Positions 8,641-62,901 of a DNA stretch of 64,000 nucleotides are shown here, one piece after another. Position 1 is the first letter of the stretch; each line of letters begins with the position of its first letter. The notes below the pieces were generated by a model that saw nothing but the letters and a program-made list of their open reading frames with translations, was not told the origin of the DNA and ran no database searches. Origin of the DNA: Candidatus Woesearchaeota archaeon B3_Woes. Its GTDB lineage: Archaea; Nanobdellota; Nanobdellia; Woesearchaeales; B3-WOES. Position numbers and translations under genes: made by a program. Where the stretch lies: NCBI GenBank assembly GCA_005222965.1, contig NJBG01000001.1, forward strand, positions 82,323 to 146,322, in the 5' to 3' direction.

Positions 8641-8726
8641 AGAAGAGAGGGATTTTAAGCTATTTATAAAGTTTTCTATGTCTTTAAAACAAAAACATAT
8701 AAAAACCAATAGCATATTTTCTTATT

Positions 8727-10000: not shown

Positions 10001-10075
10001 TCAAATATCGGTTAATAAGAAAGAATTAATTTGCGTTAATAAGATTTGCGGTTTTAACATCATCATAGAATGATT

Positions 10076-10381: not shown

Positions 10382-10514
10382 AATAATTAAGAAATAATGT
10401 CAATAATTTAAAGCCTTTGTTGTCAACTTTTTAGATGAAATTTTCTTAATGCAAATCATCGCTTAATCATCTGAGCAGAAACCTTTATATAAAACTAAAA
10501 ACCATATAAATTAA

Positions 10515-12041: not shown

Positions 12042-12134
12042 CTTAAAAACCTAAAGAAATTCTTTAGGCACCTTATTAGTACCTCTTTATGTTTAGAAAT
12101 ATTCAATCATTTAAAAATTTTCCTTTAATTAATT

Positions 12135-12755
12135 TCACAAATTAAGATAATCTAATTTTTGAATAACTCCTTTTACTCTTTCTTCCTTTTGCTGTAACAC
12201 TGTCATAGCATCCCAAGTTCCATTCAAGAAAGCTTGTCTTCTTCCTTCAGATATATCTAAATCAATAGATTTACCATCATATCTGATAACCTTATCAGCA
12301 AGACTAAGTAAGATTTTAGTAGAAGGTTCTTGTTTTACAAAATCTGCTAATTCTGTAGCATCTTGTGGAGAAACAGTAACTCCTACAACACCTAAACTTG
12401 CACAATTCCCAGCAAAAATCTCTGCAAAACTTGGAGCTATTATTGCATTAAGTCCGTATCTATGTAAAGCTTGGGGTGCGTGTTCTCTTGAAGATCCACA
12501 TCCATAATTAGCACCACCTATAAGAATTGTAGCGCCTTGATATTTTGGATCATTAAATGGGTGATCTTCTATTGGTTTCCCATCTTTGAATCTTTCATCA
12601 AAATATGCGTAATCTCCCATATTTGCAAAAGTAATCTCTTTCAAATATCTTGCAGGAACAATATCATCAGTATTTTGATCATTTGCAGGTTTTGGAATAC
12701 CTCTTCCTTTTAGTTCGATTATTTGGTTTTCAGGAATTATAAATTTATCACTCAT
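12135..12755 (-). CDS. leuD: 3-isopropylmalate/homoaconitate dehydratase small subunit (LeuD family)
   Basis: Aconitase swivel-domain signature GANYGCGSSREHAP. Adjacent to the large subunit. Confidence 0.75.
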   Translation of the reverse strand: MSDKFIIPENQIIELKGRGIPKPANDQNTDDIVPARYLKEITFANMGDYAYFDERFKDGKPIEDHPFNDPKYQGATILIGGANYGCGSSREHAPQALHRYGLNAIIAPSFAEIFAGNCASLGVVGVTVSPQDATELADFVKQEPSTKILLSLADKVIRYDGKSIDLDISEGRRQAFLNGTWDAMTVLQQKEERVKGVIQKLDYLNL

Positions 12756-12756
12756 T

Positions 12757-14157
12757 TTATTTACCTCTTAAGTAAGGTGTTGGATCAGCGATTTTTCCTG
12801 CTATTGCTGAAGCTGCAGCCATGTATGGGCTCATTAAATGAGTTCTCCCAGTAGGACTTCCTTGTCTTCCTTTAAAATTCCGATTTGATGTAGAAGCGCT
12901 TCTTTGATAACCTTCTAGTTTATCTGGATTCATTGCAAGACACATTGAACAACCCGCATATCTCCACTCTGCTCCAGCTTCTTTAAAGATTCTATCTAAT
13001 CCTTCTTCTTCAGCTAAATATTTAATTTCCTCTGACCCTGGAACAACCAATGTTTTTACAGAAACTTTATTTCCTGCTAATACTTCAGCTGCTGCTTCTA
13101 AATCACTTAATCTTCCATTTGTACACGAACCAATGAAAGCTACATCTATTGGTGTTCCAGCAATTTGATCTCCTGCTTTCAATCCCATATAATTAAGAGC
13201 ATCTTCTGCTTCACTTCTTTGTTTATCAGTAAGATTATCTAAGTAAGGAATTTTTTGATCAATTTCTACTGCTTGTCCAGGATTAATGCCCCAAGATACC
13301 ATTGGTTTAACTTCAGAAACATCAAATACTACCTTATCATCATATTCTGCGTCTGGTTCAGAAGCAATTGATTTCCAGTATGCTACTGCTTTTTCAAAAT
13401 CTTTTGGAGCAAAAGCTTTTCCTTTCAAGAAATCGAAAGTTGTTTGATCAGGATTTACATAACCAGATCTGGCGCCCCCTTCAACAGCCATATTACATAA
13501 AGTCATTCTTCCTTCCATAGACATACTGTCAATTACTTCTCCGCCAAATTCATATGCAAAACCAACACCTCCTTCTACACCAAGTTGGTTTATCATATAG
13601 AGTGCTAAATCTTTAGCAGTAACTCCTTTTTGTAATTCGCCATTAAATTCAACTTTTCTAACTTTCAAAGGGTCCATGGCAAGTGTTTGTGTTGCAAGAA
13701 CATGACTAACTTGAGTAGTTCCAATACCAAATGAAAGTGCACCAAAAGCACCATATGTGCAGGTATGACTATCTCCACAAACTGCAAGAACACCTGGCAA
13801 GATTAAACCTTGTTCAGGGAATGATACGTGACATACGCCTTGTTTGCCTGAGCCTGGTGCAAAGTATTCAATACCAAATTCCTTGATTTTGGTTTCTAAA
13901 GTTTTTGTCATTAACTCTGCTTGTGAATCTTGAAAAGGTCTTGATAAATCATGTGTAGGGATTACGTGATCAACAACAGCAGTAGTAAGTTCTGGATGTT
14001 TAACGTTTAATCCTCTTTCTCTAAGCATCTCAAATGCCTGCGGACTTGTAACTTCGTGCACTAGATGTCTTCCAACAAAAAGTTGTGTTTGTCCAGTTGG
14101 TAATTTCCCTACTTCGTGATTTTTCCAAACCTTATCATAAAGTGTTCCTTTTGACAT
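12757..14157 (-). CDS. leuC: 3-isopropylmalate/homoaconitate dehydratase large subunit (LeuC family)
   Basis: Aconitase-family motifs: [14 protein letters not shown], and the Cys ligands IGSCTNGR and CSMCLAMN. Confidence 0.8.
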
Positions 14158-14159
14158 TT

Positions 14160-15731
14160 TTATGCTGCCTCTCTAACATATTGAACAATTAGATCCCCCA
14201 TCTCTTTGGTTGAAACTTGTTTATATCCTGGTTCCATTATATCCTGTGTTCTCGCTGTTTTTAATGCTTTATCTATTGCAGTATAAACCATTTGAGCCCC
14301 TTCTTTGTCTCCTAAGTCTTCAAGCATCATTGCAGCACTTCTAATTTCTGCAATAGGGTTTGCAATTCCTTTTCCTGCAATATCGGGGGCACTTCCAGCT
14401 ATTTGCTCATAAATTCCAAAACCTTCTGCATTAACAGCAGATGAAGGCATTATACCTAATGATTTACCTACAACAGCAGCTGCCAAATCTGTATAAATAT
14501 CCCCCATCATATTACTTGCGATTACTGTGCCTAATGATGCAGGATCCGTTAATAATGTTTCAACACTTTCTTTAACATTCATGTGTCTCAATCGATACCC
14601 TTCTTTAGAAGCATTTTGATCCAATACTTTTGCCCAATAACCAAAAGTAGGCACACCATCAATTTCTAAAGAGTCAATTGTTTCTAAACCTAATTGCGAA
14701 TTAACTCTATTTGCTACAGAACCTAAATCATTGACTGTTTTTGAATCATAATGCAAAGTGTCAAATGATACTTCATCTCCAGAACTTCTTTTTCCAAAAT
14801 ATAATCCACCGCAAAGTTCTCTAATGAATGTCCTATAAACTCCATTCTCTTTTATCTCTTGAATAGCTTCTCTATTCACAGATTTACTTCCGCTGACAAC
14901 ATCAACAATTGCTTGTAAGAAATCCCCAAACATTGCATCAGCAATAACAATTGTATTTGCATATCTTTGAGGATTAGCTGCAATCTGCATTCCAGCGTTG
15001 TCGATAATTAGTTGTCCGTTTTGAGACCATTCATTTAGTTGAACTTGCCCTTGATATTCCTGAGCAACTCTTTCAAAAGTATCACTTAACATTTTTTCAG
15101 AAACAAGAACATTGTATTTTGAAGCACATAAAACTTGTTTGCTTGTTTCTTTAGCTTTTTCAAAAGCACTTCTTACTGTTTTTTCTAAACCTGATTTGCT
15201 AAATTGTTTTCTTGTAGAATGATAATCATCTCCTTGTTCAGTAGCTCCGTTGAATAAAGATTCTTCAGGACTTATTATTTCAAAACCTTCAACTTCAATA
15301 GGATCTCTAAATAAAATTGAGTTATGAGCTAATATTGGATCAATAATAAATGGTCTGTTATTAACAACACCATATCTTTTTCTCATCCCAAGAAGAGCAA
15401 GTTCAGCAGTTCTCTTTGGTAAATCATATCTTCCAACAGCTCCAAACAAAACTGCTCCTCCAGTATCACGAGCATGATCCATAGCATCTAATGTTGCTTG
15501 TGGTAAAGTTAAGCTTCTTTTAGCATCATCATCCCATTTATCTATCTCTTCTTTCTCTTCTTCTGACATATTAGCAGTTGCTTTATCATATGCAACTCCC
15601 CCCATATCAGCGAACTTATAATCAAATTTATGACCTCTTACTTCAGAAATAGCATCTAAGACTTTAATAGCTTCATTTGTTATTTCAGGACCGATTCCAT
15701 CACCTTGTATGACTGTAATATTCTTGTTCAT
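14160..15731 (-). CDS. Isocitrate/isopropylmalate dehydrogenase-family protein, unusually long (523 aa) with internal insertions
   Basis: N-terminal [13 protein letters not shown] and C-terminal [14 protein letters not shown] are the family's hallmark motifs. About 150 extra residues lie between them. Confidence 0.6.
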
Positions 15732-15825
15732 TTTAGCACCACCAAATGCGTTTACTTTATAAAAAGAATAATCAAATGCTTTATAAACTTTACTTTTATA
15801 ACTACTATAAAATAGAAACTATAAT

Positions 15826-15867
15826 TGTTGCTCAACTGGTTTTTCTTTTACAACAGGTTTAGGAGCA
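15826..15867. repeat. 42-nt exact duplicate of the 3' coding end of rpl31e (24036..24077)
   Basis: tgttgctcaactggtttttcttttacaacaggtttaggagca is identical at both loci. Here it is intergenic. Confidence 0.9.
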
Positions 15868-15984
15868 TGGCAAATGACAAGTGTATACTCTATAATGCCT
15901 AAAACAAGAGAAATAAAGAATCACGGCCCTTCCACTATTTGCCAACACCTGCTTAATACTTCGTTTAATAGGTGTTAAATCCAA
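15867..15984. repeat. Copy A of a ~120-bp repeated intergenic element (5' module atggcaaatgRcaagtgtat; 3' module ctatttgccaacacct-N17-aggtgtta)
   Basis: Aligns over its whole length with 21715..21832. The 3' module recurs at 25370..25412 and 42586..42605. The 5' module recurs inverted at 31383..31399. Confidence 0.85.
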
Positions 15985-16081
15985 TCGCCAGCATTATAAA
16001 TAAAATGATGCAAATAAATAGAGTATAGTTCAAACCAAAGAATTCGAAAAGTATTTATACTGGTATTAATCATATTTACAT

Positions 16082-16351
16082 ATGTTTGCTGTAAGGAAAT
16101 TTTATAAGAAAGTAATGGGAGCAAAAATTGGTCTTTCTGCTCAGCAGTTAAAATTAGTGTTGAGCCTGATAAAACTTAACAAAATTCATACTAAAGAAAA
16201 ACTAATTGCAATGCTTGAGTGGTTTAGAGATGAGTATTCAGAGAAAACATTAGCTAAAAAGAATGATCCATACCACGAATCTTATGATAAGGCGAGAAAA
16301 GAAGAAGTACAACCCATTATTGATCTTATAATGGTGAAACTTGAAGATTAA
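16082..16351 (+). CDS. Hypothetical protein (89 aa)
   Basis: ORF downstream of repeat copy A. Confidence 0.4.
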   Translation: MFAVRKFYKKVMGAKIGLSAQQLKLVLSLIKLNKIHTKEKLIAMLEWFRDEYSEKTLAKKNDPYHESYDKARKEEVQPIIDLIMVKLED

Positions 16352-16359
16352 TAGTTTTT

Positions 16360-17091
16360 CTAAAGCAACAAAGCAGATTTCTTATCCAAATAAACAAAAG
16401 CCTTTTTATGATTCTTCAAAATTGATGATGGACACATTGGAGAAATTCTTTTAGTAAAACACTCTTTAACTATTTCTGATTTTCTTTTTCCAAAAACTAA
16501 ACAAATAATATTCTCGGATTTCATTATCTGTTTAATAGACATTGAAATTGCCTGCTTAGGAACATCAGAAAGTTTTGAAAACCACCCTTCTTTGAGTTGT
16601 TGCTTTCTATTAACCTCATCAAGCTTTACAATAATAAAAGGCTTAGCTGTTTTAAAATCTGCAGGAGGATCATTAAATGCCAAATGCCCATTTTCTCCAA
16701 CACCCAAAAAAGCTATATCAATTTCTTTTTTAGATATCTCCTTATTTAATAATTTAATTTCTTCTTTTGGATCTTTAGAAGTGCTTTTAATTAAATGAAC
16801 TTCACCAAGATGTATCTTATTAATTAATCTTTTCCTTAAATATCTGCGAAAGCTGGCTTTGTGTTTCTCAGGCAAACCAATATACTCATCAAGATGGAAT
16901 AATGTTACCTTGGACCAATCAATTGATTTATCTTTAATAACATTCTTAAGAAATTCAAACTGCGATGTTCCAGTTGCAGCAACAATATTAGCATGTCCTT
17001 TAGATTTAATAGCACTATTTAATATCTCAACAGCCTTTTTAGCAGCTACATAAGATGCCTCTTTTTTTGTATTATAAATTTCAAGTTTCAT
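16360..17091 (-). CDS. nagB: Glucosamine-6-phosphate deaminase / 6-phosphogluconolactonase family (NagB-like)
   Basis: ATGTSQFEF, FHLDEYIGLP and GENGHLAFNDP motifs. Confidence 0.7.
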   Translation of the reverse strand: MKLEIYNTKKEASYVAAKKAVEILNSAIKSKGHANIVAATGTSQFEFLKNVIKDKSIDWSKVTLFHLDEYIGLPEKHKASFRRYLRKRLINKIHLGEVHLIKSTSKDPKEEIKLLNKEISKKEIDIAFLGVGENGHLAFNDPPADFKTAKPFIIVKLDEVNRKQQLKEGWFSKLSDVPKQAISMSIKQIMKSENIICLVFGKRKSEIVKECFTKRISPMCPSSILKNHKKAFVYLDKKSALLL

Positions 17092-17179
17092 CTAACAATA
17101 AACTTCTAATTTAGAAGTATAAAAAATTATCTTTTTATCAAACAACAAATTTATATATTCATAATATTTTAATCAGGTT

Positions 17180-17971
17180 ATGGCCGTTATAGGGTTGGAT
17201 ATTGGTGGAACAAAAATAAAAGCAGGTGTTGTTTCTAATAATCGTATTTTGAAAAAGCTTGTTGTTAAAACAGGAAAAACAAAAAAAGAAGTTATCAATA
17301 ATATTCTAAGTTCTGTTGACTCTTTGTTTGATAAAAAAATCACAGCAATAGGAATTGGGTGTCCTGGCCCTGCAGATTATAATAAAGGCCTTATAAAAAA
17401 TACAACTAATCTGCCATTAGAAGGGGTTAATATTAAGAATATTATCTCAAAAAGATTTAGAAAAAAAACACTAATGGAAAATGATGCAAACTGTTTTGTT
17501 CTTGGAGAATCTATAAGATTGAAAAAGAAAAATATTATTGGATTAACATTAGGAACAGGAATTGGAGGGGGAATTGTTATCAACAACAAATTGTACAAAG
17601 GAAAAGGTAATGCAGGTGAATTAGGACATTGCACAATCAAGTTTGATGGATTAAAAGATAAATTTGGAAAAGGAAATCTAGAAGCCTATCTTTCATCAAA
17701 AGCTATTAAAAAAAGATATAATAAAGAACCGTCTAAATTATCAAAAAAAGACTGGAATGATTATGGAAAGCTATTAGGAACAGGAATTGTAAATCTTGCA
17801 CACACTTTTGATCCAGACATTATTGTAATTGGTGGAGGAATCTCAAAAGCGTTTAACTCTTTCAAAAGTAGTATGAACAATGCGATTAAAAAAAGAACTA
17901 AGTATCAATTCAAAGTCATTAAAGGTTATGAAGACAGCGGGATACTTGGAGCTGCAGCTATAGTCAAATGA
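17180..17971 (+). CDS. ROK-family sugar kinase (glucokinase-like)
   Basis: N-terminal GLDIGGTKIK and GELGH motif. Confidence 0.7.
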   Translation: MAVIGLDIGGTKIKAGVVSNNRILKKLVVKTGKTKKEVINNILSSVDSLFDKKITAIGIGCPGPADYNKGLIKNTTNLPLEGVNIKNIISKRFRKKTLMENDANCFVLGESIRLKKKNIIGLTLGTGIGGGIVINNKLYKGKGNAGELGHCTIKFDGLKDKFGKGNLEAYLSSKAIKKRYNKEPSKLSKKDWNDYGKLLGTGIVNLAHTFDPDIIVIGGGISKAFNSFKSSMNNAIKKRTKYQFKVIKGYEDSGILGAAAIVK

Positions 17972-18540
17972 AAAAGAAAGTTTTAGTGATAGTTGCACAT
18001 CCTGATGATGAAACAATTTGGATGGGTGGGCTTCTTCTAAAGAGTAAAGATAGTTGGAATACAACAATCATAAGTCTTTGTAGGAAAGATGATAAAGACC
18101 GAGCTCCAAAATTCAAAAAAGTTTGCAGAATCTTTAAAGCAAAATGTTTTATGTCTGATTTAGAAGATGAGAAACTAAATAAAATTCCAATAGATGAAGT
18201 TACAAAAAGGATTAAAAGATTTGCAAATAAAAATTACGATTATATTTTTACCCACGGAAAAAATGGAGAATACGGCCACAAAAGACACATCAATGTTAAC
18301 AAAGCAGTAGTTCAAATGCTAAAAGACAAATCTCTATCAGCTAAAAAAGTTTTTTTCTTTTCTTATTCAATGAAAGGGAAGATTTGTTATGCAAAGCAAA
18401 ACTCAGATAGATTTATAAAGTTAAATAAACCACAGTTAGAATCAAAGAAAAAAATCATCAAAGAGGTTTATGGTTTTGACAAAGGCTCTTTTGAAGACCT
18501 TTGTTGCAGAAATGAAGAAGCATTAAAAGAGGTAACATGA
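17968..18540 (+). CDS. PIG-L/LmbE-family N-acetylglucosaminyl deacetylase
   Basis: VIVAHPDDETIWMGG motif. 4-nt overlap with the upstream ROK kinase gene. Confidence 0.75.
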   Translation: MKKKVLVIVAHPDDETIWMGGLLLKSKDSWNTTIISLCRKDDKDRAPKFKKVCRIFKAKCFMSDLEDEKLNKIPIDEVTKRIKRFANKNYDYIFTHGKNGEYGHKRHINVNKAVVQMLKDKSLSAKKVFFFSYSMKGKICYAKQNSDRFIKLNKPQLESKKKIIKEVYGFDKGSFEDLCCRNEEALKEVT

Positions 18541-19676
18541 GAAGCATAGTATTTTACGCTTATCCACCTGAAAACGATGGAACAAGCTTACAAGGACACC
18601 TGCTTTACAAAGGAATCTTGAAGACAGGCAATGATGCAGTGCCATGTCACTTTAAAGATAATCTTCAAAAAAAGTTTTTTCTAAAATATTACAAACCAGA
18701 TGTTGCTTTCGGTGTTGGGTTTTGGGGAAACGTTCCAGAGATTGTTAAAACACCAGCCAGATATGGAATTAAATCTGTTCCGTGGTTTAATGCAGATGGA
18801 TGGGTTGCTAATTATAAAGAGGAATTCGATAATCTTGATCTGATGTTTACAACAAGCGAATGGGTAAGACAAACCTATAAAAGAGATGGAATAGACATAA
18901 GCAAAATAATTCCGATGCATATTGGAATAGACACCAACTTGTTTAAGCCAACAAATAATCTAAACTTTAATAGAAGTATAAAAAATATGCTTGGAATTCA
19001 GGATAATGAAAAGATGATTCTTACGGTTGGAGGAGATACAACCTCAAAAGGCTCACAAGAAATGATGAAAGCATTAGCAGAGGTCAACAAAGAATTTAAA
19101 GATTGGAAATACGTTTGTAAATCCTGGCCTAGTGATTGTGCATCTGACTGGAGAGATAAAGAAGTTGAATTAGCTGAAGAGTTAGGTATAAGTGATAAAA
19201 TTATTTTTTTAACTGATGAATTTGGTCCTGAATTCATGGTTCATCTTTTAAACGCTGCAGATATTTATGCTGCTCCTTCAAGATTAGAAGGTTTTGGAAT
19301 GATCCAGGTAGAAGCAATGTCCTGTGGAAAACCAGTAATATCAATTAATAAGATGGGTCCATCTGAAACAATAATTCATAATAAAACAGGATTTTTAGCC
19401 AAAGTTGGTGAAGAAATAAAATTAGGTCAAGAGTGGGTTTATCCTTCAATGGGTTTTAAAACAAAACAAATAATTGAATTTGATTCACCAAAAACATTTG
19501 GATATAGAGCAGATATAAATGATCTGAGAGATTTTACTCTAAAACTTTTAACAGATTCTGATTTACGAGAACAAATGGGAAAACAAGCAAGAGAACACGT
19601 AGTTCAAAACCTTGATTACAAATATATTTCCCAGAAGATGGTAGATATAACCAAAGAAAAATTAAATTTAGATTAA
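18537..19676 (+). CDS. Glycosyltransferase, GT-B fold (GT4-like)
   Basis: C-terminal EGFGMIQVEAMSCGKPVI matches the E-x7-E GT4 motif region. Confidence 0.7.
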   Translation: MRSIVFYAYPPENDGTSLQGHLLYKGILKTGNDAVPCHFKDNLQKKFFLKYYKPDVAFGVGFWGNVPEIVKTPARYGIKSVPWFNADGWVANYKEEFDNLDLMFTTSEWVRQTYKRDGIDISKIIPMHIGIDTNLFKPTNNLNFNRSIKNMLGIQDNEKMILTVGGDTTSKGSQEMMKALAEVNKEFKDWKYVCKSWPSDCASDWRDKEVELAEELGISDKIIFLTDEFGPEFMVHLLNAADIYAAPSRLEGFGMIQVEAMSCGKPVISINKMGPSETIIHNKTGFLAKVGEEIKLGQEWVYPSMGFKTKQIIEFDSPKTFGYRADINDLRDFTLKLLTDSDLREQMGKQAREHVVQNLDYKYISQKMVDITKEKLNLD

Positions 19677-20759
19677 AATCTTTTTCTTTTTTAATGATTC
19701 GTATGCAAGAATATATAATCCTGCATCCCATGCCTGAAGATTTCCAAAAGATTCTTTTGTTAATGGATTTATCCATTCGGGAAAGTTTCCTTTTAGATTT
19801 GCTTCTGCTAATTTCTTAAGTTCTTCTTCAGCTTTCTTAAATTTCTTAAGCTTGATCAAACTTAAAACATAAAATCCGCCAATATAAGTCCATATTCCCC
19901 CATTCAGATAGTGATGAGGTTCTTTAGCATCACAATCTTCAAAATAATCATGCCACTCTTTTGTTCCTCTTCTTATTGGAGGATAGATTGCCTTAACAGG
20001 ATATGGTCTGTTTATTTTGTTTTTTTCTATGTAATTAATAATCTTTTTTGCCTGTTGCTCATCAGCCAGATCAAAAACAATTGCAAGAAGATTTCCTAAT
20101 GAATCAAACCAATCTCCTATCTCTTTGTATTTATTATGATTTTTCCATCTGTAAGGAACATAAAAATCTTTATCCCATAATTTTGTTTCTTCATATTTAT
20201 TAACCATAAATTTTAATTTTTTTGCGTCTTTTTGATTATTGGTTAAATTCAAAACTTTATAATACATGGCTTGTGTATTTATAGCAACTCCATACTTGTG
20301 TGGAAAAGCATCCTGCCAGTCTGTTGTAGGAAGCTGTTCTAAAACTCCATTTTCACCTATATCCTGAAAACTCAACCAAAACAAAGCTTTTTTTATTGTG
20401 TTTTGATATTTCTTAAATAATGAATTATCTTTGTATCTTTTCTTGTAAACATAATGTCCAATTATATACCACAAAGTTGAATCAATAGAAGCATAATCTA
20501 CATGTGGTTTTCTTTTGCTGTATTTATCTACAGCGTTTGGTATTTGCCCTTTAGGACTTTGATTCGTTGCCAAAACAACTAAGCTTTTCTTAAAAGTCTG
20601 TTTAAATTTAGGATCTAAACTAGCTCCTAAAAAACTTATCATGCTGTCTCTGGACCAAACAGCATTATAACCTTCTTTTCCGCCAGAAGCAAATAAACCA
20701 TGAGGTGTAGAACAAGCTTTTATTACCTCTTTTGCTTTTTTATGACATTCCCCTATCAT
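19668..20759 (-). CDS. Glycoside hydrolase, (alpha/alpha)6-barrel type (glycogen-debranching / GH63-like)
   Basis: WSRDS motif, Trp-rich sequence. Next to sugar-handling genes. Confidence 0.5.
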   Translation of the reverse strand: MIGECHKKAKEVIKACSTPHGLFASGGKEGYNAVWSRDSMISFLGASLDPKFKQTFKKSLVVLATNQSPKGQIPNAVDKYSKRKPHVDYASIDSTLWYIIGHYVYKKRYKDNSLFKKYQNTIKKALFWLSFQDIGENGVLEQLPTTDWQDAFPHKYGVAINTQAMYYKVLNLTNNQKDAKKLKFMVNKYEETKLWDKDFYVPYRWKNHNKYKEIGDWFDSLGNLLAIVFDLADEQQAKKIINYIEKNKINRPYPVKAIYPPIRRGTKEWHDYFEDCDAKEPHHYLNGGIWTYIGGFYVLSLIKLKKFKKAEEELKKLAEANLKGNFPEWINPLTKESFGNLQAWDAGLYILAYESLKKKKILI

Positions 20760-20840
20760 GAATATAATTAAGATTATCTATTATTTAAGAGTTTTGGAGT
20801 TTAATAGCTTTTAATAAGATTTGCTGTTTTAAGAATTAAG

Positions 20841-21671
20841 TTAATCCAATGGGCTTGTTATTGAGTTAAGCATATTAAAATCTGTTTTTATGTATCTTTG
20901 TGTTGTTGAAAGTCTTGCATGCCCTAATAATTTTTGAATATGAAAAGAATCAACACCTTTTTGATTAAGGTGTGTTGCAAAGCTGGATCTTAAAGCGTGG
21001 CAAAATACATTTCTCTTTATTCCGGCTTTTTTAGCTGCGTTTTTAACTATTTTTTCTGCTGTTCTTTTGGAAATGTGAGTTTCTGGATTAGAACTGCTGA
21101 TAAAAATAAAAGAATTTGTATCTTTTCTTTTTTGCAGAAATTCAATTAAATCCTTTATGAATTTTTCAGAAGCTATAACATATCTGTCTTTTTTGCCTTT
21201 ACCTTGTTTTACAATCAAAAATTTATCTTCAAAATAAATATTTTCAATTTTTAGTTTTACTGCCTCATTTACCCTTAATCCAGATGAATATAATAATTCA
21301 ATCAGTAATTTATGTTTAATATTTGTTGTTTTATCTATCATTGCTAAAATATCATTTTTAGTTAGTATAACTGGCTCTTTTATCTCTGGTTTTGCTCTTT
21401 TTAGCCCATTAATAAACCTCCTTTTCATAAAATCAACATAATATGATTTAAATGCGGATATTGCTAAATTTATTGTAGCTGGTTTTGCACCATATTGTTC
21501 AATCATATATAAAATATAATTTTTTACATCATTTTCAGTAATTGTTTTTGAGCCTTTTTTTGTAAATTCTAAAAGTTTTTTGTTAAAAAATAAATAAGAT
21601 TTAATTGTTTCTTTGCTGTAACATCTTATTTTTAATTCATTTTCAAAATTTTTAAGTTCTGTTGTTTTCAT
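20841..21671 (-). CDS. xerA: Tyrosine recombinase, XerA/XerCD-like
   Basis: C-terminal catalytic motifs HALRSSFATHL...GHARLSTTQRYIKTD (R..H..R..Y). Confidence 0.8.
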   Translation of the reverse strand: MKTTELKNFENELKIRCYSKETIKSYLFFNKKLLEFTKKGSKTITENDVKNYILYMIEQYGAKPATINLAISAFKSYYVDFMKRRFINGLKRAKPEIKEPVILTKNDILAMIDKTTNIKHKLLIELLYSSGLRVNEAVKLKIENIYFEDKFLIVKQGKGKKDRYVIASEKFIKDLIEFLQKRKDTNSFIFISSSNPETHISKRTAEKIVKNAAKKAGIKRNVFCHALRSSFATHLNQKGVDSFHIQKLLGHARLSTTQRYIKTDFNMLNSITSPLD

Positions 21672-56410: not shown

Positions 56411-56494
56411 CTAATTACCCCCAATTAAACCTTGTCCCATCACCCCTTTTTCTTTTGTAACTACTTGAAAATAGCAATTAGTATTTAAACCTTT

Positions 56495-56504
56495 TGGTTA
56501 TTTC
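56495..56504. repeat. Left target-site duplication tggttatttc
   Basis: Identical 10-mer at 62892..62901, both outside the terminal inverted repeats. Confidence 0.6.
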
Positions 56505-56634
56505 GGCTTTGCACATAAATGAAATTTTGCATATTTATTATAGTCTTTTGCACAAAAATCAATTTCCAAAACATTTATATATTTAGTCGTATAATAATAA
56601 TGCGTTGAAAAGATAGATAAAATAATGTTTAGTG

Positions 56635-56811
56635 ATGAAGATGGTCGTGATTCAGGTTTCCAAGGCGGATAGTGAGAAGGTATTTACAATCCTATCCAAT
56701 AATGGACGTTTTACAGAATTATCAGATAATAGATTCGGTATAATAGATAATGAAGAAGATGTTCTAAAGAAACTTGACGAGGCAAACGTAAAATATAAAA
56801 AAGTGGTATGA
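56635..56811 (+). CDS. Hypothetical small protein (58 aa) inside the element; absent from track
   Basis: MKMVVIQVSKADSEKVFTILSNNGRFTELSDNRFGIIDNEEDVLKKLDEANVKYKKVV. Confidence 0.3.
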   Translation: MKMVVIQVSKADSEKVFTILSNNGRFTELSDNRFGIIDNEEDVLKKLDEANVKYKKVV

Positions 56812-56817
56812 TTCTAT

Positions 56818-57141
56818 ATGAAACTTTACAGCATCTTTCTACCAAAAACCTATAATAATAAAAAACCAATTCCGACCAAAAAAATTAGAAGAATAACTAA
56901 GGAAATAAGAGAGAAATTTGGTTCATATTCTGCAGACCCTTATGCCAAATTGCCTATAATTGAAGGCACATGGACATCAAAAACAAAAAAACTATTCAAT
57001 GAAACTATGACGTGTGTCCAAGTTTTCACTGAAGACACTTATAAAACTCAAAGATGGTTTAAAGCAAAAAAAGAGACTTGGGCACAAGAGCTTGATCAAG
57101 AAGTATTATTTATAATCGAACAGCATGCAGAGATATTATAA
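56818..57141 (+). CDS. Hypothetical protein (107 aa)
   Basis: ORF 7 nt after the previous one. Confidence 0.4.
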   Translation: MKLYSIFLPKTYNNKKPIPTKKIRRITKEIREKFGSYSADPYAKLPIIEGTWTSKTKKLFNETMTCVQVFTEDTYKTQRWFKAKKETWAQELDQEVLFIIEQHAEIL

Positions 57142-57417
57142 TATATTTCTTCACCTTTAATGAATTTATCTAAAATGAAACTCTCCTATTATTCTTACAT
57201 AGGCTATGGCTTCCTTGTAGCCACTGTATTTGGTTTGGGTTGGTATGGAATAAAAGATTATAGAGTTCAAGGGTTGTTCATTCTAACTGTTTGTTTTTTA
57301 TTGGTTGATGTTATAAAGTATTATAGAAATAAGTAATTCTTTATTTATGTGCAATTCATTACATAGTTTTGCACAAAAAAGAGAATCTTTTTAAATATAT
57401 AAAGAATAAAGACTATT

Positions 57418-57999
57418 ATGTCCACAGATGAAAACATTAATAAAAAATTAACCCCTGTATTAGAAAAATATAGGGAATCTTTCTCTAATAAAGTTATAGA
57501 AGAAGGAAAGACTGATTCTGATATATTGATGGAAGTATTTAATATTACTCATGAGGAAAAGATTCAAAATAAGCAATATTGGGGAAGAGAACTTGGTAAG
57601 TGTTGGGAACGTTTAGTTCAATCTGTATTTTCTGAACGAAAAGATTATAGTTCAGGTATAAAAGAAGGATCTGATGAAATTTGTGATTGTGTTATTGGTA
57701 ACATGGCTATTGAAGCAAAATATAGGGTTGGTTCTGGAGATTCTGGTACTTTAAAAAAATTTAAACAATATGCACAAAGATTAAAAGATAAAGGGCTTGA
57801 TCCGATAATGATTTTTTTGAGAGAAGATAATCTTCCGGCAGCTATAACAGCATGTAGAAATGGAGGTTGGACAATCATAATGGGGGATGAGTGTTTTAAG
57901 TTTATTGAAAAAGAATCTAATTTTGATTTAAAGGTAGCATTAAAATCTCTTAAAGGAAAATATGATATAAAAAAGAAAAAACAAATTACTCTTTTTTGA
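57418..57999 (+). CDS. Putative type II restriction endonuclease, PD-(D/E)xK-like
   Basis: SDEICDCVIGNMAIEAKYR fits the D-x9-ExK pattern. Convergent with the methyltransferase, 3' ends overlapping by 14 nt. Confidence 0.5.
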   Translation: MSTDENINKKLTPVLEKYRESFSNKVIEEGKTDSDILMEVFNITHEEKIQNKQYWGRELGKCWERLVQSVFSERKDYSSGIKEGSDEICDCVIGNMAIEAKYRVGSGDSGTLKKFKQYAQRLKDKGLDPIMIFLREDNLPAAITACRNGGWTIIMGDECFKFIEKESNFDLKVALKSLKGKYDIKKKKQITLF

Positions 58000-59347
58000 G
58001 AACAATCATTCTATCATAATCAATTTTATCGGCAAAAGACACATTTCTGTCAATATTCATACTCCTCTGTTTTAGAATTATTTGAAATTGTTTCTCTTTT
58101 TTGAATCCAACAGATTCAGCTATCTTTGATAGAAATAGTGATGTTGGAACAAAAACTTTTCTGATATTATTATCACCAATAACTATACAATATCTTCCAC
58201 CATTTTTCAAAACTTTATACGCTTCTTCAAAATGTTTTTTCATATCTAAAAAATATTTATAAGTAACCCTCGACCTTAATTTACTTTGCGTATTAGAATC
58301 GTATGCATTATATATTTCTTCGATAATTTTATCTGTTTCATCGATTCCTATTTGACCTAGTATAGAATATTCTTTTTTTGGTATCCTCTCTGTACCAATC
58401 TCATAATTATATAAATTTAATCTATCTTGATCGCTTTTAACTAAATCTAACCAATGCACCCTTAACCTATTAGCCCAAATATAATCCATTGCATTAATGT
58501 ATGGTGGAGATGTCACTATTAGATCAACCTTATCAATATCTTCTGGTAAATTTATTTCTCTAGCGTCATTTCCAATTATTTTTGCAAAATTAGATATGTT
58601 TTGTTCTTTAGAGAACTCAGAAATATATTCTATATATTTTTCTGAGAAAGACGAAAACAAATCAATAGTATCATTCTCTGAAAGTTGTTTTATATTTCTC
58701 CAATCTTTCCTCCTAGCCGTTAACATTTGTCCGGGTGCAATATAAGATGATTTTCTAACAGCCATAGAAAAAGATACTAAGAAAAAGTCTCTAATATCTT
58801 TATCTTCTATTTTATTTACATATTTTTTTATCTTAGCTAATCCTCTAATAACATTTTCATTAAACCAAAAATCAACTCCTCTAAAATTAGGTATTGGTAA
58901 ATCAGAACTAGAATCGTTTTTGATATTATCCATCAATGAGTTATATTTAGATCGTAATTTGTTTTCTTCGATTGATGTTGATTTTACTTTGCTAACTAAT
59001 CTAGCGTAAGGATTATAATCAATACCTAAACAATTTCTTTTTAACTTCTTTGCTTCTATAAAAGTTGTTCCTCCGCCTATAAAAGGGTCTAAAATAATAT
59101 CGTTTTCTTTAGAAAAATTTTTAATTGCCCACCTTGGTAACTCAGGTATATATTTACAAGGATATAATGCTATATTATGTACGTCTCTTTTGCTTTCTCT
59201 AAAAATACTTAAATAAGCATCATCTTCAATATTCAAAGGAATATCTCCATATATTTTCTTGAGAGTTATTTCTCTTCCATTATCATTATGAACTTCTTGT
59301 TTTTGTTTTATATGTGAAGAAAATTCACCTAGATTTTTTTGTTGCAT
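57986..59347 (-). CDS. DNA methyltransferase, N4-cytosine/N6-adenine family (SPPY type, likely N4C)
   Basis: Motif I LDPFIGGGTT near residue 90 and motif IV IVTSPPY near residue 283. Confidence 0.75.
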   Translation of the reverse strand: MQQKNLGEFSSHIKQKQEVHNDNGREITLKKIYGDIPLNIEDDAYLSIFRESKRDVHNIALYPCKYIPELPRWAIKNFSKENDIILDPFIGGGTTFIEAKKLKRNCLGIDYNPYARLVSKVKSTSIEENKLRSKYNSLMDNIKNDSSSDLPIPNFRGVDFWFNENVIRGLAKIKKYVNKIEDKDIRDFFLVSFSMAVRKSSYIAPGQMLTARRKDWRNIKQLSENDTIDLFSSFSEKYIEYISEFSKEQNISNFAKIIGNDAREINLPEDIDKVDLIVTSPPYINAMDYIWANRLRVHWLDLVKSDQDRLNLYNYEIGTERIPKKEYSILGQIGIDETDKIIEEIYNAYDSNTQSKLRSRVTYKYFLDMKKHFEEAYKVLKNGGRYCIVIGDNNIRKVFVPTSLFLSKIAESVGFKKEKQFQIILKQRSMNIDRNVSFADKIDYDRMIVLKKE

Positions 59348-59350
59348 TTT

Positions 59351-59602
59351 TTAATTTTGTATTTTCATTCCTTTAAATCCTTCTTCAGGATTCTTTAACT
59401 TATATAACCTTTTTCTACTATCTTTATCATCAATATTAACTTCCAACCAACCAGCCTTTCTTAAATCTGAAAAGAAAACATTAATACCTGCATCGTCTTT
59501 CAAAGCTTTTTTAGCCTGTTCAAAAGTAAACTCTTTATCTTTAAATTTATTCCAGAGAATTGCGTATCGTATTTGGATCCATTTAGGGAGGGGTTTTGTC
59601 AT
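59351..59602 (-). CDS. Hypothetical small protein (83 aa) co-oriented with the methyltransferase
   Basis: Ends 4 nt before the methyltransferase start codon. Confidence 0.45.
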   Translation of the reverse strand: MTKPLPKWIQIRYAILWNKFKDKEFTFEQAKKALKDDAGINVFFSDLRKAGWLEVNIDDKDSRKRLYKLKNPEEGFKGMKIQN

Positions 59603-59644
59603 AAGTAAATAGCTTATATATTAAGTATTTAAAAGTTTCTGTTT

Positions 59645-60994
59645 TTAATGATTTGGAATAATTTCCAAATAATGTTTACAGGAACTTTCTGCTAACTTAT
59701 TAAACGCAGCCCTAACACTATCATTTTCTATTGCTTGTTGTGTTTCTAATACTAGATTATCCATTGTATTAAAATAGTGTGTTCTTGTTAATTTTGATTT
59801 TGTTTTCCCAATAAATGTTGAGAAGTCTCTCCCATTATATTCATTACAACAACCATAAGGACAAGGGAATTTTTTCCCATGAGAATCATATATTTTCTTC
59901 AATGCTCTCAGTGAAATCATAGAAAGAAAATAATAATAAAAATATTTTCCTTTCAAAAATGAGGGTAAGTCTGTATTTTTATAAGAAACAAACATGTTTT
60001 CTACAATCCCATTTGAAGGTGTAGAAAAACCATCAATTCCTGCTTGTAACATAAATAAACCCAAAGAATCAACATTTAATGCAAAAACTGGAATTTTAAA
60101 CTTCTTACTTACTACCTTTAAACCTTTCAAAAATCTTTTAAGGTTGTCTCTTTGAATTCCAGCATTTCTACTATCTAAACCATAAGAATCAACTATCTTA
60201 AAGAAAAAGAATTGAGGTTGCTCTTCATTTATATATTTCAATATTTTATCTAAATAATCATATTCTTCAAGTGTAGACGTCTTTAAAACAAAGTTTGCAG
60301 CAGGTATCCATCCTTCGTGAGTTTTACAAATTTTTTCTGTTTCTTTATTTATTTTTATAGCCATATCTAAACTCTCAGATACTTCGGGAATAATCAGATT
60401 AGATGGAGCTAATAATATTTTAGAACCCAACCTTTTGCTTCTTTGTAAAAATTTCAAAGTGTGGTTAAATTCTTTTCCATGAAGTTTATGAATATACTCT
60501 CTAAATAATTTAATTTTATCAATTCTTTTTTTGTTTCTACTTTCATCACCTTTCTTTTTACCAATACCTATTTTTTTAATTTGTTCAACATATTCTAATG
60601 GTAAATTTTCAATATCTATTTGGTCAGGATCAACCAAACTTAAATATGAAGATTCTCCTAAGGGATCGATTATTATAACTTTGTTTTCTATAATTTCTAA
60701 AAAACCATTTTCTTTCTTGGTTCCGTCAAGATTTAATTGTACAGACCTTGTTTTTTTTGGTAAGAGTAATTTCTTAACATTATTAAAAGGGATAATAACC
60801 CCTTGAAAACAATTTTTTTTAAACTTGTTATTTTCAACCCAATCTGATAAAAAATCAACATCCCAACTTGATTTAGGTTCAACAAAAAAGCAAGGAGTAC
60901 TGAATATTAAATCTTTTTTTGGTAAGTTTACATGAACTAATCTTCTTCTCACACCACTTGCTTCTTTAATTTCATTAATTTCGACGTTTTTCAT
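59645..60994 (-). CDS. Hypothetical protein (449 aa) with C-terminal Cys cluster CPYGCC...H
   Basis: No clear family. GIDGFSTPSNG followed about 60 aa later by a CxxxCC-N22-H cluster. Confidence 0.55.
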   Translation of the reverse strand: MKNVEINEIKEASGVRRRLVHVNLPKKDLIFSTPCFFVEPKSSWDVDFLSDWVENNKFKKNCFQGVIIPFNNVKKLLLPKKTRSVQLNLDGTKKENGFLEIIENKVIIIDPLGESSYLSLVDPDQIDIENLPLEYVEQIKKIGIGKKKGDESRNKKRIDKIKLFREYIHKLHGKEFNHTLKFLQRSKRLGSKILLAPSNLIIPEVSESLDMAIKINKETEKICKTHEGWIPAANFVLKTSTLEEYDYLDKILKYINEEQPQFFFFKIVDSYGLDSRNAGIQRDNLKRFLKGLKVVSKKFKIPVFALNVDSLGLFMLQAGIDGFSTPSNGIVENMFVSYKNTDLPSFLKGKYFYYYFLSMISLRALKKIYDSHGKKFPCPYGCCNEYNGRDFSTFIGKTKSKLTRTHYFNTMDNLVLETQQAIENDSVRAAFNKLAESSCKHYLEIIPNH

Positions 60995-60998
60995 TTTC

Positions 60999-61499
60999 TC
61001 ACCTTATAATTCTTTTAGTATGTAATATTTTCATTATATCATCAAATCTTTCTTTAAATGTATCTAATTCATCTAATGGAATAATTATACCACCTTTAGA
61101 TTCTATCTCATTATATATATCTTCTTTCTTTTCTTGGATATATAAAAATTTACCAAGACGATTTGAGATAACATAAATTTCAAAAAACTTATTTTGTAAT
61201 ATTATTTTATTTTTATATATAGGATCTAAAAGATTTCCATTAGAAAAAAGTAATCCATTTCTTGAATCTGGTGGATATTGGTAAATTTCCCCTTTTGTGA
61301 TTAAGTTTTTGATATGTTTAGATATTGTGTTTCTATGAAAAAAAGTGTTTTCTTCAATCTGTTTCATGTTTATTCCAATATTAGTATTTAATTGGATTAT
61401 CTCTTTGATTTTAGATTCGGCATACTTCTCTCTTTCTTGAGGAGGTTTTTTTGAATATAAATCATATTCTTCTAGTTCAGGTATCTTTATCGTGTGCAT
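60999..61499 (-). CDS. Winged-helix DNA-binding protein (166 aa)
   Basis: NTISKHIKNLITKGEIYQY is a wHTH recognition-helix pattern. First gene of the co-oriented 166-449-83-MTase string. Confidence 0.45.
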   Translation of the reverse strand: MHTIKIPELEEYDLYSKKPPQEREKYAESKIKEIIQLNTNIGINMKQIEENTFFHRNTISKHIKNLITKGEIYQYPPDSRNGLLFSNGNLLDPIYKNKIILQNKFFEIYVISNRLGKFLYIQEKKEDIYNEIESKGGIIIPLDELDTFKERFDDIMKILHTKRIIR

Positions 61500-61686
61500 A
61501 TATATTGTGAATAGAAAGGTATTTAAATACTTTATGGTTTTCTAATATACATATTGTGCATTTACGTTGTGCACACCAAAAAACGAAACATTTATATACT
61601 TAAGTGATATACTTATTTAATAAGTAAATAACTTATTAATATAAATAAGGCAAGAAGCCCGAAGGCTTCCTGTCGGAGGAACCAAA

Positions 61687-62871
61687 ATGCACGACGAAGC
61701 ACAAAATAGTTCTCCAATAGGAGAAAACAATTCAGAGGTTAAAAGCTTTTCTGAATTAAAAGAACAAAATGAAGAGTTGCATAACATTGCTAAAGAAATT
61801 ATGTCAAGAATGGGAGAAGTCGAACAAGGCACTCATAAGAAATTTATACATGAGGTCATGGAAAAGTACAAAGATGTACAAAAGAAAAAAGATGGTAAAT
61901 ATAGTCAGGATTGGGCTTCATACAATAAAGTTCAGTCAAAAGAAAAACTCCTTTTAATGAACATTCTAGATGAACTTCTTAATTATGTTGAATTTCCTGA
62001 AGATAAGAAATGTGTTGGTAGAAAGCCTGTTGATTTAAAAGAGAAAATATTCTACACAATATTACAAGCCTACAATCTTAAAAGCGGTCGTAGGTGTATT
62101 TCTGACTTAGAGATAGCACGAAAACTAGGCTATGTAAACAAGACACCACATTTCAATACAGTATTGAATTGTCTTAAAGATCAATCTCTAACTATATATT
62201 TAAAACATTTAATTGAAGTTTCTGGTATTCCATTAAAACAAATAGAATCTGACTTTGCAGTTGATGCTTCTGGATTTTCCACATCAGAGTTTGGTAGATG
62301 GTTTGATGTTAGAACAGGCTCTAATTCCGATAAAAGAAAGTATAGGAAATGTCATATAACTTGTGGCGTCAGAACTAATATAATTACTGCTGTGAATATA
62401 ACAAAAGGAACAAGGTCAGATAGTCCAGAGTTTCCTGATCTAATTAAAAAAACAAACAGAATTTATGATATAAAAGAAGTTTCCGCAGATAAAGGGTATA
62501 CTTCCCGAGAAAACCTCCAAGCTGTTTCTAATATTGGGGCTATACCTTTTATACCTTTCAAAAAGAACATTAAGCCAAATACAAGGAGTAAGAATGTAGA
62601 CATTTGGAGAAAGATGTATATGTTCTTTACTCATTATCCAGAAGAGTTTGATCATCATTATCATAAAAGAAGTAATGTTGAGACTTGCTTTCATATGATT
62701 AAGAGGAAGTTTAACAGCCATTTGAGAAGCAGAACAGAAACAGGACAAGATAATGAAGTATTAGCTAAATGTTTATGCCACAATCTTTGTGTCTTGGCTC
62801 AAGAAGCTATGGAACTAGGAATTGAACTTGATTTTAAAAAATGTGCAGACATAGAGGTTGCACATAATTAG
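61687..62871 (+). CDS. DDE transposase, IS4/IS5 superfamily (DDE_Tnp_1-like)
   Basis: FAVDASGFS, VSADKGYTS and YHKRSNVETCFHMIKRKF (D, D, E-containing blocks). A GGAGGA ribosome-binding site is 8 nt upstream of the ATG. Confidence 0.75.
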   Translation: MHDEAQNSSPIGENNSEVKSFSELKEQNEELHNIAKEIMSRMGEVEQGTHKKFIHEVMEKYKDVQKKKDGKYSQDWASYNKVQSKEKLLLMNILDELLNYVEFPEDKKCVGRKPVDLKEKIFYTILQAYNLKSGRRCISDLEIARKLGYVNKTPHFNTVLNCLKDQSLTIYLKHLIEVSGIPLKQIESDFAVDASGFSTSEFGRWFDVRTGSNSDKRKYRKCHITCGVRTNIITAVNITKGTRSDSPEFPDLIKKTNRIYDIKEVSADKGYTSRENLQAVSNIGAIPFIPFKKNIKPNTRSKNVDIWRKMYMFFTHYPEEFDHHYHKRSNVETCFHMIKRKFNSHLRSRTETGQDNEVLAKCLCHNLCVLAQEAMELGIELDFKKCADIEVAHN

Positions 62872-62888
62872 GGATAGTTTATGTGCAA
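62859..62888. repeat. Perfect 10-bp palindrome ttgcacataa-N10-ttatgtgcaa spanning the transposase stop codon and IR-R
   Basis: Direct reading. Confidence 0.8.
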
Positions 62889-62891
62889 AGC

Positions 62892-62901
62892 TGGTTATTT
62901 C
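62892..62901. repeat. Right target-site duplication tggttatttc
   Basis: Matches 56495..56504. Confidence 0.6.

Follow-up and report, generated by a model that had tools for sequence, protein, structure and literature searches.

Organisation of the locus and ends of the element

The window considered here, a stretch of 64 kb of DNA from Candidatus Woesearchaeota archaeon B3_Woes, contains two genes whose products look like secreted, membrane-anchored surface proteins, each beginning with a signal-like segment and ending in a membrane anchor, and between them, as an earlier note made from the sequence alone had described, a segment of 6,388 bp (positions 56505-62892) that bears the marks of a transposon (Table 1). 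Nine open reading frames (ORFs) are found between the terminal inverted repeats of this segment: a gene for a DDE transposase, which comes last, at the right end, and whose product is 100% identical to CEE44_00840 of the same archaeon (P0001; on a 1.0-Mb contig), and eight cargo ORFs, with a putative restriction-modification (R-M) pair among them. An exact look-up of the transposase sequence gave nothing, P0001 having come from the homologue search. The earlier note had listed five cargo genes, three of them unknowns; among the eight now counted are a probable enzyme of the tRNA-guanine transglycosylase (TGT) superfamily, which had been one of those unknowns, and two helix-turn-helix (HTH) regulators. 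On the evidence set out below, the segment is very probably an autonomous unit transposon, or ‘transporter IS’ (IS, insertion sequence), with a transposase distantly related to that of IS903 and with all of its cargo moving as one.

The ends of the element are defined by two sets of repeats. The 14-mer GCTTTGCACATAAA at 56506-56519 has its exact reverse complement at 62878-62891, as first reported, and the window has no further copy of it without mismatch. Immediately outside, the 10-mer TGGTTATTTC occurs at 56495-56504 and again at 62892-62901, and nowhere else in the window. A single G at 56505, overlooked in the earlier note, keeps the direct repeat and the left inverted repeat apart. Since the ends of relatives delimited elsewhere (described below) read GGCTTTGCAC.../...GTGCAAAGCC and are accompanied by 9-bp duplications, the window is parsed as a 9-bp target-site duplication flanking 15-nt terminal repeats; the coordinates of the 10-bp duplication originally proposed are thus correct, its length is not, and the tenth matching base is a coincidence. 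The only mismatch between the two terminal repeats is at their outermost base (G on the left versus the complement of T on the right). Inside the left repeat stand two direct copies of the end motif, TTTGCATATTTA and TTTGCACAAAAA, which are probably transposase-binding boxes. The left ends of most relatives contain two or three such boxes, the TTTGCACA boxes being direct repeats inside the left end, and at the right end the boxes form an inverted pair.

Table 1. Features of the element, its flanking genes and its two closest delimited relatives. Coordinates are those of the window unless a contig (L001, L002) is named.
Feature	Position	Strand	Remarks
Giant surface protein, 1,591 aa	51635-56410		very acidic, many N-x-S/T sites
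Target-site duplication, left copy GGTTATTTC	56496-56504		identical to 62893-62901; 9 bp also in 32/32 delimited relatives
Left terminal inverted repeat GGCTTTGCACATAAA	56505-56519	+	14/15 complementary to 62878-62892
Subterminal direct copies of end motif, TTTGCATATTTA and TTTGCACAAAAA	56526-56537; 56547-56558	+	read from sequence; candidate boxes
TATA box TTTATATA	56574-56581		after left subterminal boxes
ORF, 59 aa	56632-56811	+	probable start ATG at 56635; no family match
ORF, 107 aa	56818-57141	+	no family match
ORF, 58 aa	57160-57336	+	hydrophobic, membrane-like peptide; no family match
Internal pseudo-end junction	57344-57379		TTTATGTGCAATTCA-TTACAT-AGTTTTGCACAAAAA
TATA box of nuclease gene	57390-57399
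Putative type II restriction endonuclease, 193 aa	57418-57999	+	PD-(D/E)XK fold
DNA methyltransferase, 453 aa	57986-59347	-	N6_N4 type; SPPY and FxGxG motifs
Winged-helix regulator, 83 aa	59351-59602	-	directly upstream of methyltransferase; weak MsvR match
Probable TGT-superfamily (DpdA-like) protein, 449 aa	59645-60994	-
HTH protein, 166 aa	60999-61499	-	first gene of leftward operon; weak HTH_36 and phrog HTH matches
Divergent promoter region	61500-61686		TGCACA boxes 61555-61575; TATA box TTTATATA 61591-61598; leader hairpin; GGAGG
DDE transposase, 394 aa	61687-62871	+	intact; PF01609 E 5.4e-23; NF033579 128.2 bits
Right end	62858-62892	-	inward-facing box and terminal inverted repeat
Right inward-facing box TTGCACATAA	62858-62867	-	overlaps last transposase codons
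Right terminal inverted repeat TTTATGTGCAAAGCT	62878-62892	-	right end reads ...GCAAAGCT
Target-site duplication, right copy GGTTATTTC	62893-62901		9 bp, perfect
Poly-Gly surface protein, 277 aa	62905-63738		run of 17 glycines
L001 element, 9,560 bp	L001 1633-11192		ends GGCTTTGCACATAAA / ...TGTGCAAAGCC; duplication GTCTTTAAC (9 bp)
L002 element, 4,732 bp	L002 2714-7445		duplication CCTATTTTT (9 bp); left end starts GGC

Relatives, transposase and movement as a unit

A scan of one genome per prokaryotic species with an alignment of the transposase returned 78 loci, at which ends were located with a finder that starts from the stop codon of the transposase gene and accepts an exact 9-bp direct repeat adjoining an inverted repeat matched at 9 or more of 12 positions. 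In total 33 elements were delimited, including that of the window, the 32 further ones being on archaeal, bacterial and IMG/VR contigs: 24 come from two look-up loci and the 78 genome loci, and others from L083/L085, L170 and, in six cases, IMG/VR contigs. GGCTTTG or a one-base variant of it stands at the tips of all 33, the transposase gene lies at the right end of every one, and the 9-bp duplication is perfect in all 32 relatives; because the duplicated 9-mer is different in each element, these are separate insertions. Three matches of the finder that lack the GGCTTTG tip look like chance and indicate its false-positive rate. The elements measure 1.8-10.9 kb (median 4.7 kb), with 31 of the 33 longer than 3 kb, and the closest transposase homologues on long contigs are P0002 (76% identity; contig L001) and P0003 (66%; L002). 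The hosts include Woese-, Pace-, Nano-, Aenigmat- and Micrarchaeota, Thermoplasmata, Methanosarcinales and Methanoperedens, as well as Acidobacteriota and Dehalococcoidia. The insertion by transposition that the earlier note proposed from one pair of inverted repeats and one duplication is thereby supported by 32 independently delimited cases.

The most direct illustration of transposition with cargo is provided by one of the IMG/VR contigs (L173), which contains an element of 3,925 bp (7066-10990) with the duplication CTTTCTGTA, the cargo of which consists of an HNH_2 endonuclease, a C5 DNA methylase (E 3e-80) and a 64-aa ORF in addition to the transposase. From two further contigs, L210 and L211, this element is precisely absent and one copy of CTTTCTGTA is kept, within flanks that are 100% identical to those of L173, the left one over ~1.95 kb and the right one over 94-127 bp. 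This clean empty site means that an R-M pair and a transposase were inserted together with a 9-bp duplication, in agreement with the earlier suggestion that defence genes are moved as one unit. Among the six family members on IMG/VR contigs that were scanned in this way, the other five gave no empty site. Transposases of the family are found on 38 IMG/VR contigs classed as viral (L171-L208), the six delimited elements on them measuring 3.3-4.4 kb; such contigs could be the vehicles that move these transposons between cells.

The stop codon of the transposase gene is 21 nt from the right end, so that the gene sits where the earlier note had placed it, and the catalytic residues D193, D268 and E332 are invariant in an alignment of 27 sequences (A1), together with a Y-x2-R-x3-E-x6-K motif (Y325, R328, K339). 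There are 3,426 homologues. The best NCBIfam model for the protein is NF033579 (IS5 family, IS903 type), which is also the best model of IS903 itself; IS903 scores 355 bits and the relative L010 141 bits. Sequence identity is 23% over the catalytic core with the IS903 transposase and ~25% with IS903-group transposases on plasmids. The copy of IS903 retrieved from E. coli (1,057 bp) has the ends GGCTTTGTTGAATAAATCG, while those of the present family read GGCTTTGCACA... or GGCTTTGTTTAATAAGT, the latter being present in several members and almost the IS903 sequence; the GGCTTTG tip is thus kept both across the family and in IS903. The target duplication of IS903 is 9 bp. The GGC tips, the 9-bp duplication and the best-scoring model together point to the IS903 group of the IS5 family for the element, and since it lacks the compactness of these insertion sequences and its transposase scores under the cut-off of the model, it is best described as working like IS903 without being a simple IS. 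The IS4-type affiliation suggested in the earlier note is not sustained: the transposase scores 43 bits with the IS4 model (NF033592, IS4_1), which has a cut-off of 115 and is thus far outscored by IS5_2, and the duplication is 9 bp rather than 10.

With one transposase, one pair of inverted repeats, passenger genes and one outer duplication, the segment has the structure of a unit transposon. A compound transposon was considered and rejected, as there is a single transposase ORF in the element and no homologous transposase elsewhere in the region, and so was an integrase-type element or casposon, as no tyrosine or serine recombinase and no Cas1 domain is encoded by any of the ORFs and the ends are inverted repeats.

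Several observations weigh against the view that this is a mobile unit transposon of the IS903 group. The transposase score is just under the curated cut-off of the best model (128.2 versus 140 bits). The mismatch at the outermost base of the terminal repeats might impair cleavage; three relatives have the same or a similar right tip (...AAAGCT in L045 and L078, as in the window, and ...AAGGCT in L010). The G+C content of the element (27-32%) is not different from that of its flanks, the window being ~30% G+C throughout, so that composition gives no independent signal of a foreign origin. No second copy of the ends or of the transposase is present within the window, and the copy there is presumed to be still active. 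Lastly, an empty site for the window insertion, the check proposed in the earlier note, was not found in metagenome contigs with a 25-mer query; the sequence expected of the unoccupied site is CCTTTTGGTTATTTCAACTTATT.

Defence and DNA-modification functions dominate what these elements transport. A Pfam search of 121 cargo proteins from 25 elements identified seven C5, six N6_N4, two D12, two N6_Mtase and one EcoRI-type methylase, as well as Type I specificity domains, GmrSD, MvaI/BcnI, HindVP, ResIII, AIPR and HTH proteins; by a motif screen, from which one false match to a transposase was removed, a DNA methyltransferase is present in 13 of the 25. Further elements contain DarT-Macro, an NgoFVII-like phospholipase D (PLD) nuclease and an MmeI-like type IIG enzyme. 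Genes for defence and DNA modification are therefore the commonest recognisable cargo. We tentatively regard the window element as a member of a large, unnamed IS903-related clade that normally carries multi-gene defence and DNA-modification cargo (R-M, GmrSD, DarTG, AIPR and TGT-like genes) and is found in archaea (DPANN and others), in several phyla of bacteria and on contigs of viral class, although this generalisation is somewhat less likely than not.

Two contigs show notable surroundings. On L001, outside the transposon, positions 11324-21176 contain a radical SAM gene, a C5 methylase, a tyrosine integrase, ~25 small ORFs and a reverse transcriptase, and the transposon there may lie inside another mobile element or a provirus. 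On L169, positions 1-9837, upstream of a transposase 65% identical to that of the window, contain a series of defence-like genes, for an MmeI-like type IIG enzyme, DUF365, Peptidase_M78 with DUF4411, SLFN/AlbA_2 and a PLD-helicase; no left end was found within 10 kb, so that the element there either extends beyond 10 kb or has been truncated.

Cargo genes and insertion site

The restriction nuclease and DNA methyltransferase named in the earlier note differ in how firmly they can be identified. The methyltransferase is clear (PF01555, E 1.4e-23; PADLOC MTase_II, E 1.5e-52; phrog_18146, E 1.3e-61). The 193-aa protein encoded by the convergent gene, which overlaps that of the methyltransferase by 14 nt, has weak direct matches only (RE_ApaLI, E 0.006, where the 16.8 bits fall short of the cut-off of 25; PADLOC REase_II, E 0.002), and neither a single-sequence search nor a family-profile search of the PDB with it gave a match. 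It has 1,506 homologues, many of which match PF09499 or are named restriction endonucleases. Its AlphaFold2 model (predicted local distance difference test score, pLDDT, 86) finds the PD-(D/E)XK nucleases Card1, Ecl18kI, PspGI and NucS/EndoMS as the best folds in the PDB, with Foldseek probabilities near 1.0 and template-modelling scores (TM-scores) of only about 0.4. From the weak matches, the homologue family and a fold with low TM-scores, a type II restriction enzyme is probable rather than proven.

Directly upstream of the methyltransferase gene lies that of the 83-aa winged-helix protein, homologues of which occupy the same position before methyltransferases in L008 and L010 (cluster 3); an 81-aa ORF stands in this place before the type IIG R-M gene of L082, the match there being by size and position only. 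The arrangement suggests that the winged-helix protein may control the R-M genes, which are themselves presumably functional.

The 449-aa protein is tentatively assigned to the TGT superfamily by its family profile (41 sequences), which matches the archaeosine tRNA-guanine transglycosylase 1iq8 with E 1.4e-12; the aligned parts include the N-terminal strand as well as the Zn motif LPCxCxxC...H. Of the three cysteines for Zn, one is displaced in this protein (PCPYGCC), and its segment GIDGFSTPSNG resembles what we take to be the catalytic GIDMFDCVLPTRSG segment of TGT. The protein has no direct Pfam match, a single-sequence PDB search with it was empty, Pfam TGT matches one of the 41 family members, and that weakly, and the AlphaFold2 model, built from 3 sequences, is poor (pLDDT 47). 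No match to the protein was obtained by tblastn in phage genomes, and no DpdB/DpdC-like partner or gene of preQ0 synthesis was recognised among the eight cargo ORFs. Few such proteins are known, the family having 69 representatives at E <= 0.001.

Wherever its surroundings were compared (the window, L082 and L083-L085), the TGT-like gene is preceded by a gene for a protein of 166 or 173 aa, the small neighbours matching by size and position and homology across these loci having been shown for the TGT-like proteins only. This two-gene module (166/173 aa plus ~445 aa) lies at 59645-61499 in the window, at 1746-3595 in L082 and at 2081-3932 in L083, and is accompanied at none of them by preQ0 or DpdB/C genes. 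Its defence partners vary: type II R-M in the window; type IIG R-M in L082, where the order is the 166-aa gene, the TGT-like homologue, the 81-aa gene and then the R-M gene; and DarT-Macro in L083, where, as in L084 and L085, the 173-aa gene and the TGT-like homologue belong to another member of the transposon family. The HTH and TGT/DpdA-like pair is possibly a second DNA-modification activity, the TGT-like enzyme being a candidate for base swapping on the strength of its profile match and gene context.

For the three small ORFs of the left module, no match was found in PADLOC, PHROGs, Pfam or NCBIfam, and tblastn of the 107-aa protein in phage genomes was likewise negative. The transposase gene at the other end is preceded by a leader of 40 nt (61647-61686), which contains a hairpin, GAAGCC-cgaa-GGCTTC (61654-61669), followed by GGAGG (61675-61679). 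In L001 this leader is the same at every position, although the DNA of the two transposase genes is only 79% identical, and in L015 the hairpin reads GGAGCC-cgaa-GGCTCC, a compensatory change of the stem. The leader may be a control element that acts on translation or on read-through.

The insertion itself is intergenic: it lies upstream of the giant surface-protein gene, 94 bp from its start codon, and on the other side it follows the stop codon of the poly-Gly gene by 3 bp. The sequence TTTAAATA at 56483-56490 on the minus strand is presumed to be the TATA box of the giant gene; if it is, this box was preserved, 14 bp from the insertion. The sole tRNA gene of the window, tRNA-Gly(GCC) at 360-433 on the minus strand, is unrelated to the element.

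Internal junction and alternative readings

In addition to its two ends, the element contains an internal junction, in which a right-end-like arm (TTTATGTGCAATTCA) and a left-end-like arm (AGTTTTGCACAAAAA) are separated by the 6-nt spacer TTACAT and neither arm has a GGC/GCC tip. The junction lies ~10 nt upstream of the TATA box of the nuclease gene. The same 21-nt spacing of the cores recurs in L001 (4097-4132 and 5854-5889), L017 (element position 2025), L154 and L156. Each junction of the window, L001 and L017 is just upstream of a TATA box, and in L001 a lone GmrSD gene is enclosed by the two junctions in the manner of a cassette. Over 104 bp, comprising the last ~20 codons of the 58-aa ORF and the junction, the window is 89% identical to L001 4025-4128, while the neighbouring cargo differs. 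A scan of metagenomes for the junction motif gave 82 loci, 80 of which were analysed and proved mostly to be unrelated palindromes from gut and other bacteria; apart from L115 (which is the L001 contig again), L154, L156 and a few more, none looks related. The junction may be a relic of abutted elements (that is, of cargo accretion), an operator, or both. A role as terminator was rejected, as no T-run follows the junction on either strand.

The boxes of the ends are also found at promoters. TGCACA occurs 12 times in the 6.4-kb element and 16 times in the other 57.6 kb of the window, a ~7-fold enrichment, and almost all of the internal copies either belong to the ends or precede a TATA box by 10-20 nt, the pairs being 56547-56558 before the TATA box at 56574, 57365-57379 before that at 57390 and 61555-61575 before that at 61591. 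From this placement, the protein that recognises the ends may also regulate the promoters of the cargo and of the transposase. The tip-less junctions could, as one possibility, be functional boundaries of modules, bound by the transposase or by a regulator, that allow cassettes to be added or swapped.

The alternative that survives best is a refinement of the unit transposon rather than a replacement for it, and is a substantial minority possibility: that two elements were fused, a 0.85-kb unit resembling a miniature inverted-repeat transposable element (56505-57358, with the three small ORFs) and an autonomous R-M transposon of 5.5 kb (57365-62892), whose inner ends lost their cleavable tips so that the two now form a single unit, with cargo growing by the accretion of modules. 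The correctly oriented, tip-less arms of the junction at 57344-57379 are what such a fusion would leave, and the two junctions around the single GmrSD gene of L001 and the 89% identity to L001 of the window junction and 70 nt upstream of it, in spite of different surrounding cargo, point the same way. Real tandems also exist: L045 contains two elements (88-2503, and 2513 onward) separated by exactly the 9-bp duplication that they share (..GCAAAGCT ACAAATATA GGCTTTGCAC..), and in L016, in the right flank of the transposase gene, perfectly abutted ends form the palindrome GGGCAAAGCCGCTTTGCAC. The arrangement in these two contigs suggests insertion adjoining existing ends, or a junction intermediate. 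Independent adjacent insertions, however, would not be expected to produce a uniform 21-nt spacing with a similar 6-nt spacer, 3 nt shorter than in a true tandem, and the location of the junctions just upstream of TATA boxes, like the third box of the left end, fits a regulatory or operator role. A free-standing left module was not found, the sole metagenome scan having been aimed at the junction motif.

Far less probable is the reading in which only a simple IS of ~1.3 kb is mobile, with the R-M genes as a resident island and the repeat at 56505, on the left, as a solo end or a match by chance. Classical members of the IS903 group are indeed ~1.05 kb in length with one gene (1,057 bp in E. 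coli), and TGCACA-containing sequences occur just upstream of the transposase gene (61555-61575). However, no end of the GGCTTTG type is present in 57380-61686 even with two mismatches allowed, it is the outer ends that the 9-bp duplication flanks, 31 of the 33 elements have more than 3 kb, with cargo, between their left and right ends, and the empty site of L173 lacks cargo and transposase alike.

Still less credible is a plasmid or provirus that became integrated through site-specific recombination, with the transposase as a passenger, for which one could cite the homologous transposases on the 38 IMG/VR contigs and, on L001 beyond the limits of the element, the tyrosine integrase and the numerous small ORFs; the element has no integrase, replication or capsid gene, its ends are inverted repeats and not direct attachment sites, the insertion is not in a tRNA gene, and a duplication as short as 9 bp is the signature of DDE transposition. 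Coincidence of repeats in AT-rich DNA with nothing mobile, suggested by the low G+C content and by the 10-mer occurring twice in 5 of 100 shuffles, can be dismissed almost entirely, since a 12-nt inverted repeat (at least 11 matches) abutting a 9-bp direct repeat beside the transposase stop arose in 4 of 3,000 shuffles (of the 20 kb upstream and 500 nt around the stop codon), GCTTTGCACATAAA with up to two mismatches is found 6 times in the window against 1.05 expected, and, decisively, the same termini and 9-bp duplication recur in the 32 other delimited elements, so that the earlier judgement that chance was unlikely is borne out.

Transposition as a unit would then proceed as follows. The transposase would bind the TTTGCACA boxes in both ends, cleavage would take place at the GGC tips, and the element would be joined to its target with a 9-bp staggered cut, as in IS903, repair of the stagger giving the GGTTATTTC duplication. 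The type II R-M pair with its winged-helix regulator, the HTH gene with the TGT/DpdA-like enzyme and the three-ORF left module would be moved together. The R-M pair may in turn protect and stabilise the element by post-segregational killing, with the transposon giving the R-M genes mobility.

R-M systems are regarded as selfish mobile units whose vehicle is rarely identified, and DPANN archaea have tiny genomes, depend on hosts and possess defence repertoires that are poorly understood. Here the vehicle of an R-M system is explicit, with an IS903-like transposase, defined ends and a 9-bp duplication, and because the clade is frequent in DPANN it could explain the exchange of defence genes among DPANN, other archaea and bacteria. 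If the present interpretation is true, DDE cargo transposons of the bacterial type are here described from archaea for the first time, and the mobility of R-M genes, long postulated, has a concrete vehicle in them; they are possibly also a compact and tractable transposition system for archaea, and they bring to light an uncharacterised family of TGT-like enzymes tied to defence cargo.

Compared with IS903, the window element has the same kind of transposase (DDE_Tnp_1, with the YREK motif and NF033579 as best model) and, as shown by the GGCTTTGTTTAATAAGT ends of several relatives beside the GGCTTTGTTGAATAAATCG ends of IS903, termini that begin with the same GGCTTTG. The differences are its size and content (6,388 bp with eight passenger ORFs versus 1,057 bp with one gene), the 23% identity of the transposases, that of the window having a longer N-terminal region, the multiple subterminal boxes, the internal pseudo-end junction and hosts that are mainly DPANN and other archaea. 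Closer in organisation are the bacterial passenger-carrying insertion sequences for which the term ‘transporter IS’ (tIS) was introduced as an ISfinder concept, the examples quoted in a review having a regulator, a methyltransferase or a resistance gene as passenger (Siguier et al., 2009, as cited in PMC11891212). Both have one IS-type transposase and one pair of repeats around dispensable genes, with an outer duplication; unlike these tIS examples, the clade of the window element has up to ~9 kb of multi-gene defence cargo, and cargo is the rule.

[quoted passage not shown] (2019; PMC6563490), the exceptions reported being casposons and the Heimdallarchaeial aloposons, which are not DDE-transposase elements (PMC11529989), and a 2026 survey of archaeal insertion sequences does not mention passenger genes (PMC13343696). 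The clade is therefore apparently undescribed in the archaeal literature that was searched; a named relative may exist in ISfinder. Casposons and aloposons resemble the window element in being integrated, with terminal repeats, target duplications and passenger genes, but casposons use Cas1, whereas the window element has no Cas1, family B polymerase or tyrosine recombinase. With regard to the cargo, DpdA (PMC6884629; PMC10164549) and the 449-aa protein have in common the TGT superfamily, to which the latter probably belongs by its profile match, including the Zn motif, and a context of defence or DNA modification; unlike in the Dpd system, there is no direct Pfam TGT match to the 449-aa protein and no DpdB/DpdC or preQ0 gene is recognised.

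The closest precedent for the mobility of the R-M genes is found in bacterial R-M units that are bordered by imperfect inverted repeats and an 8-bp duplication and for which empty sites are known in related genomes (Furuta, Abe and Kobayashi, 2010; PMC2853133). Those units are without a transposase, their mobilising enzyme was unknown, and no archaeal case passed the screen (PMC2853133). The window element differs from them in being autonomous, in having a transposase whose family is identified and in belonging with relatives whose hosts are mostly archaea.

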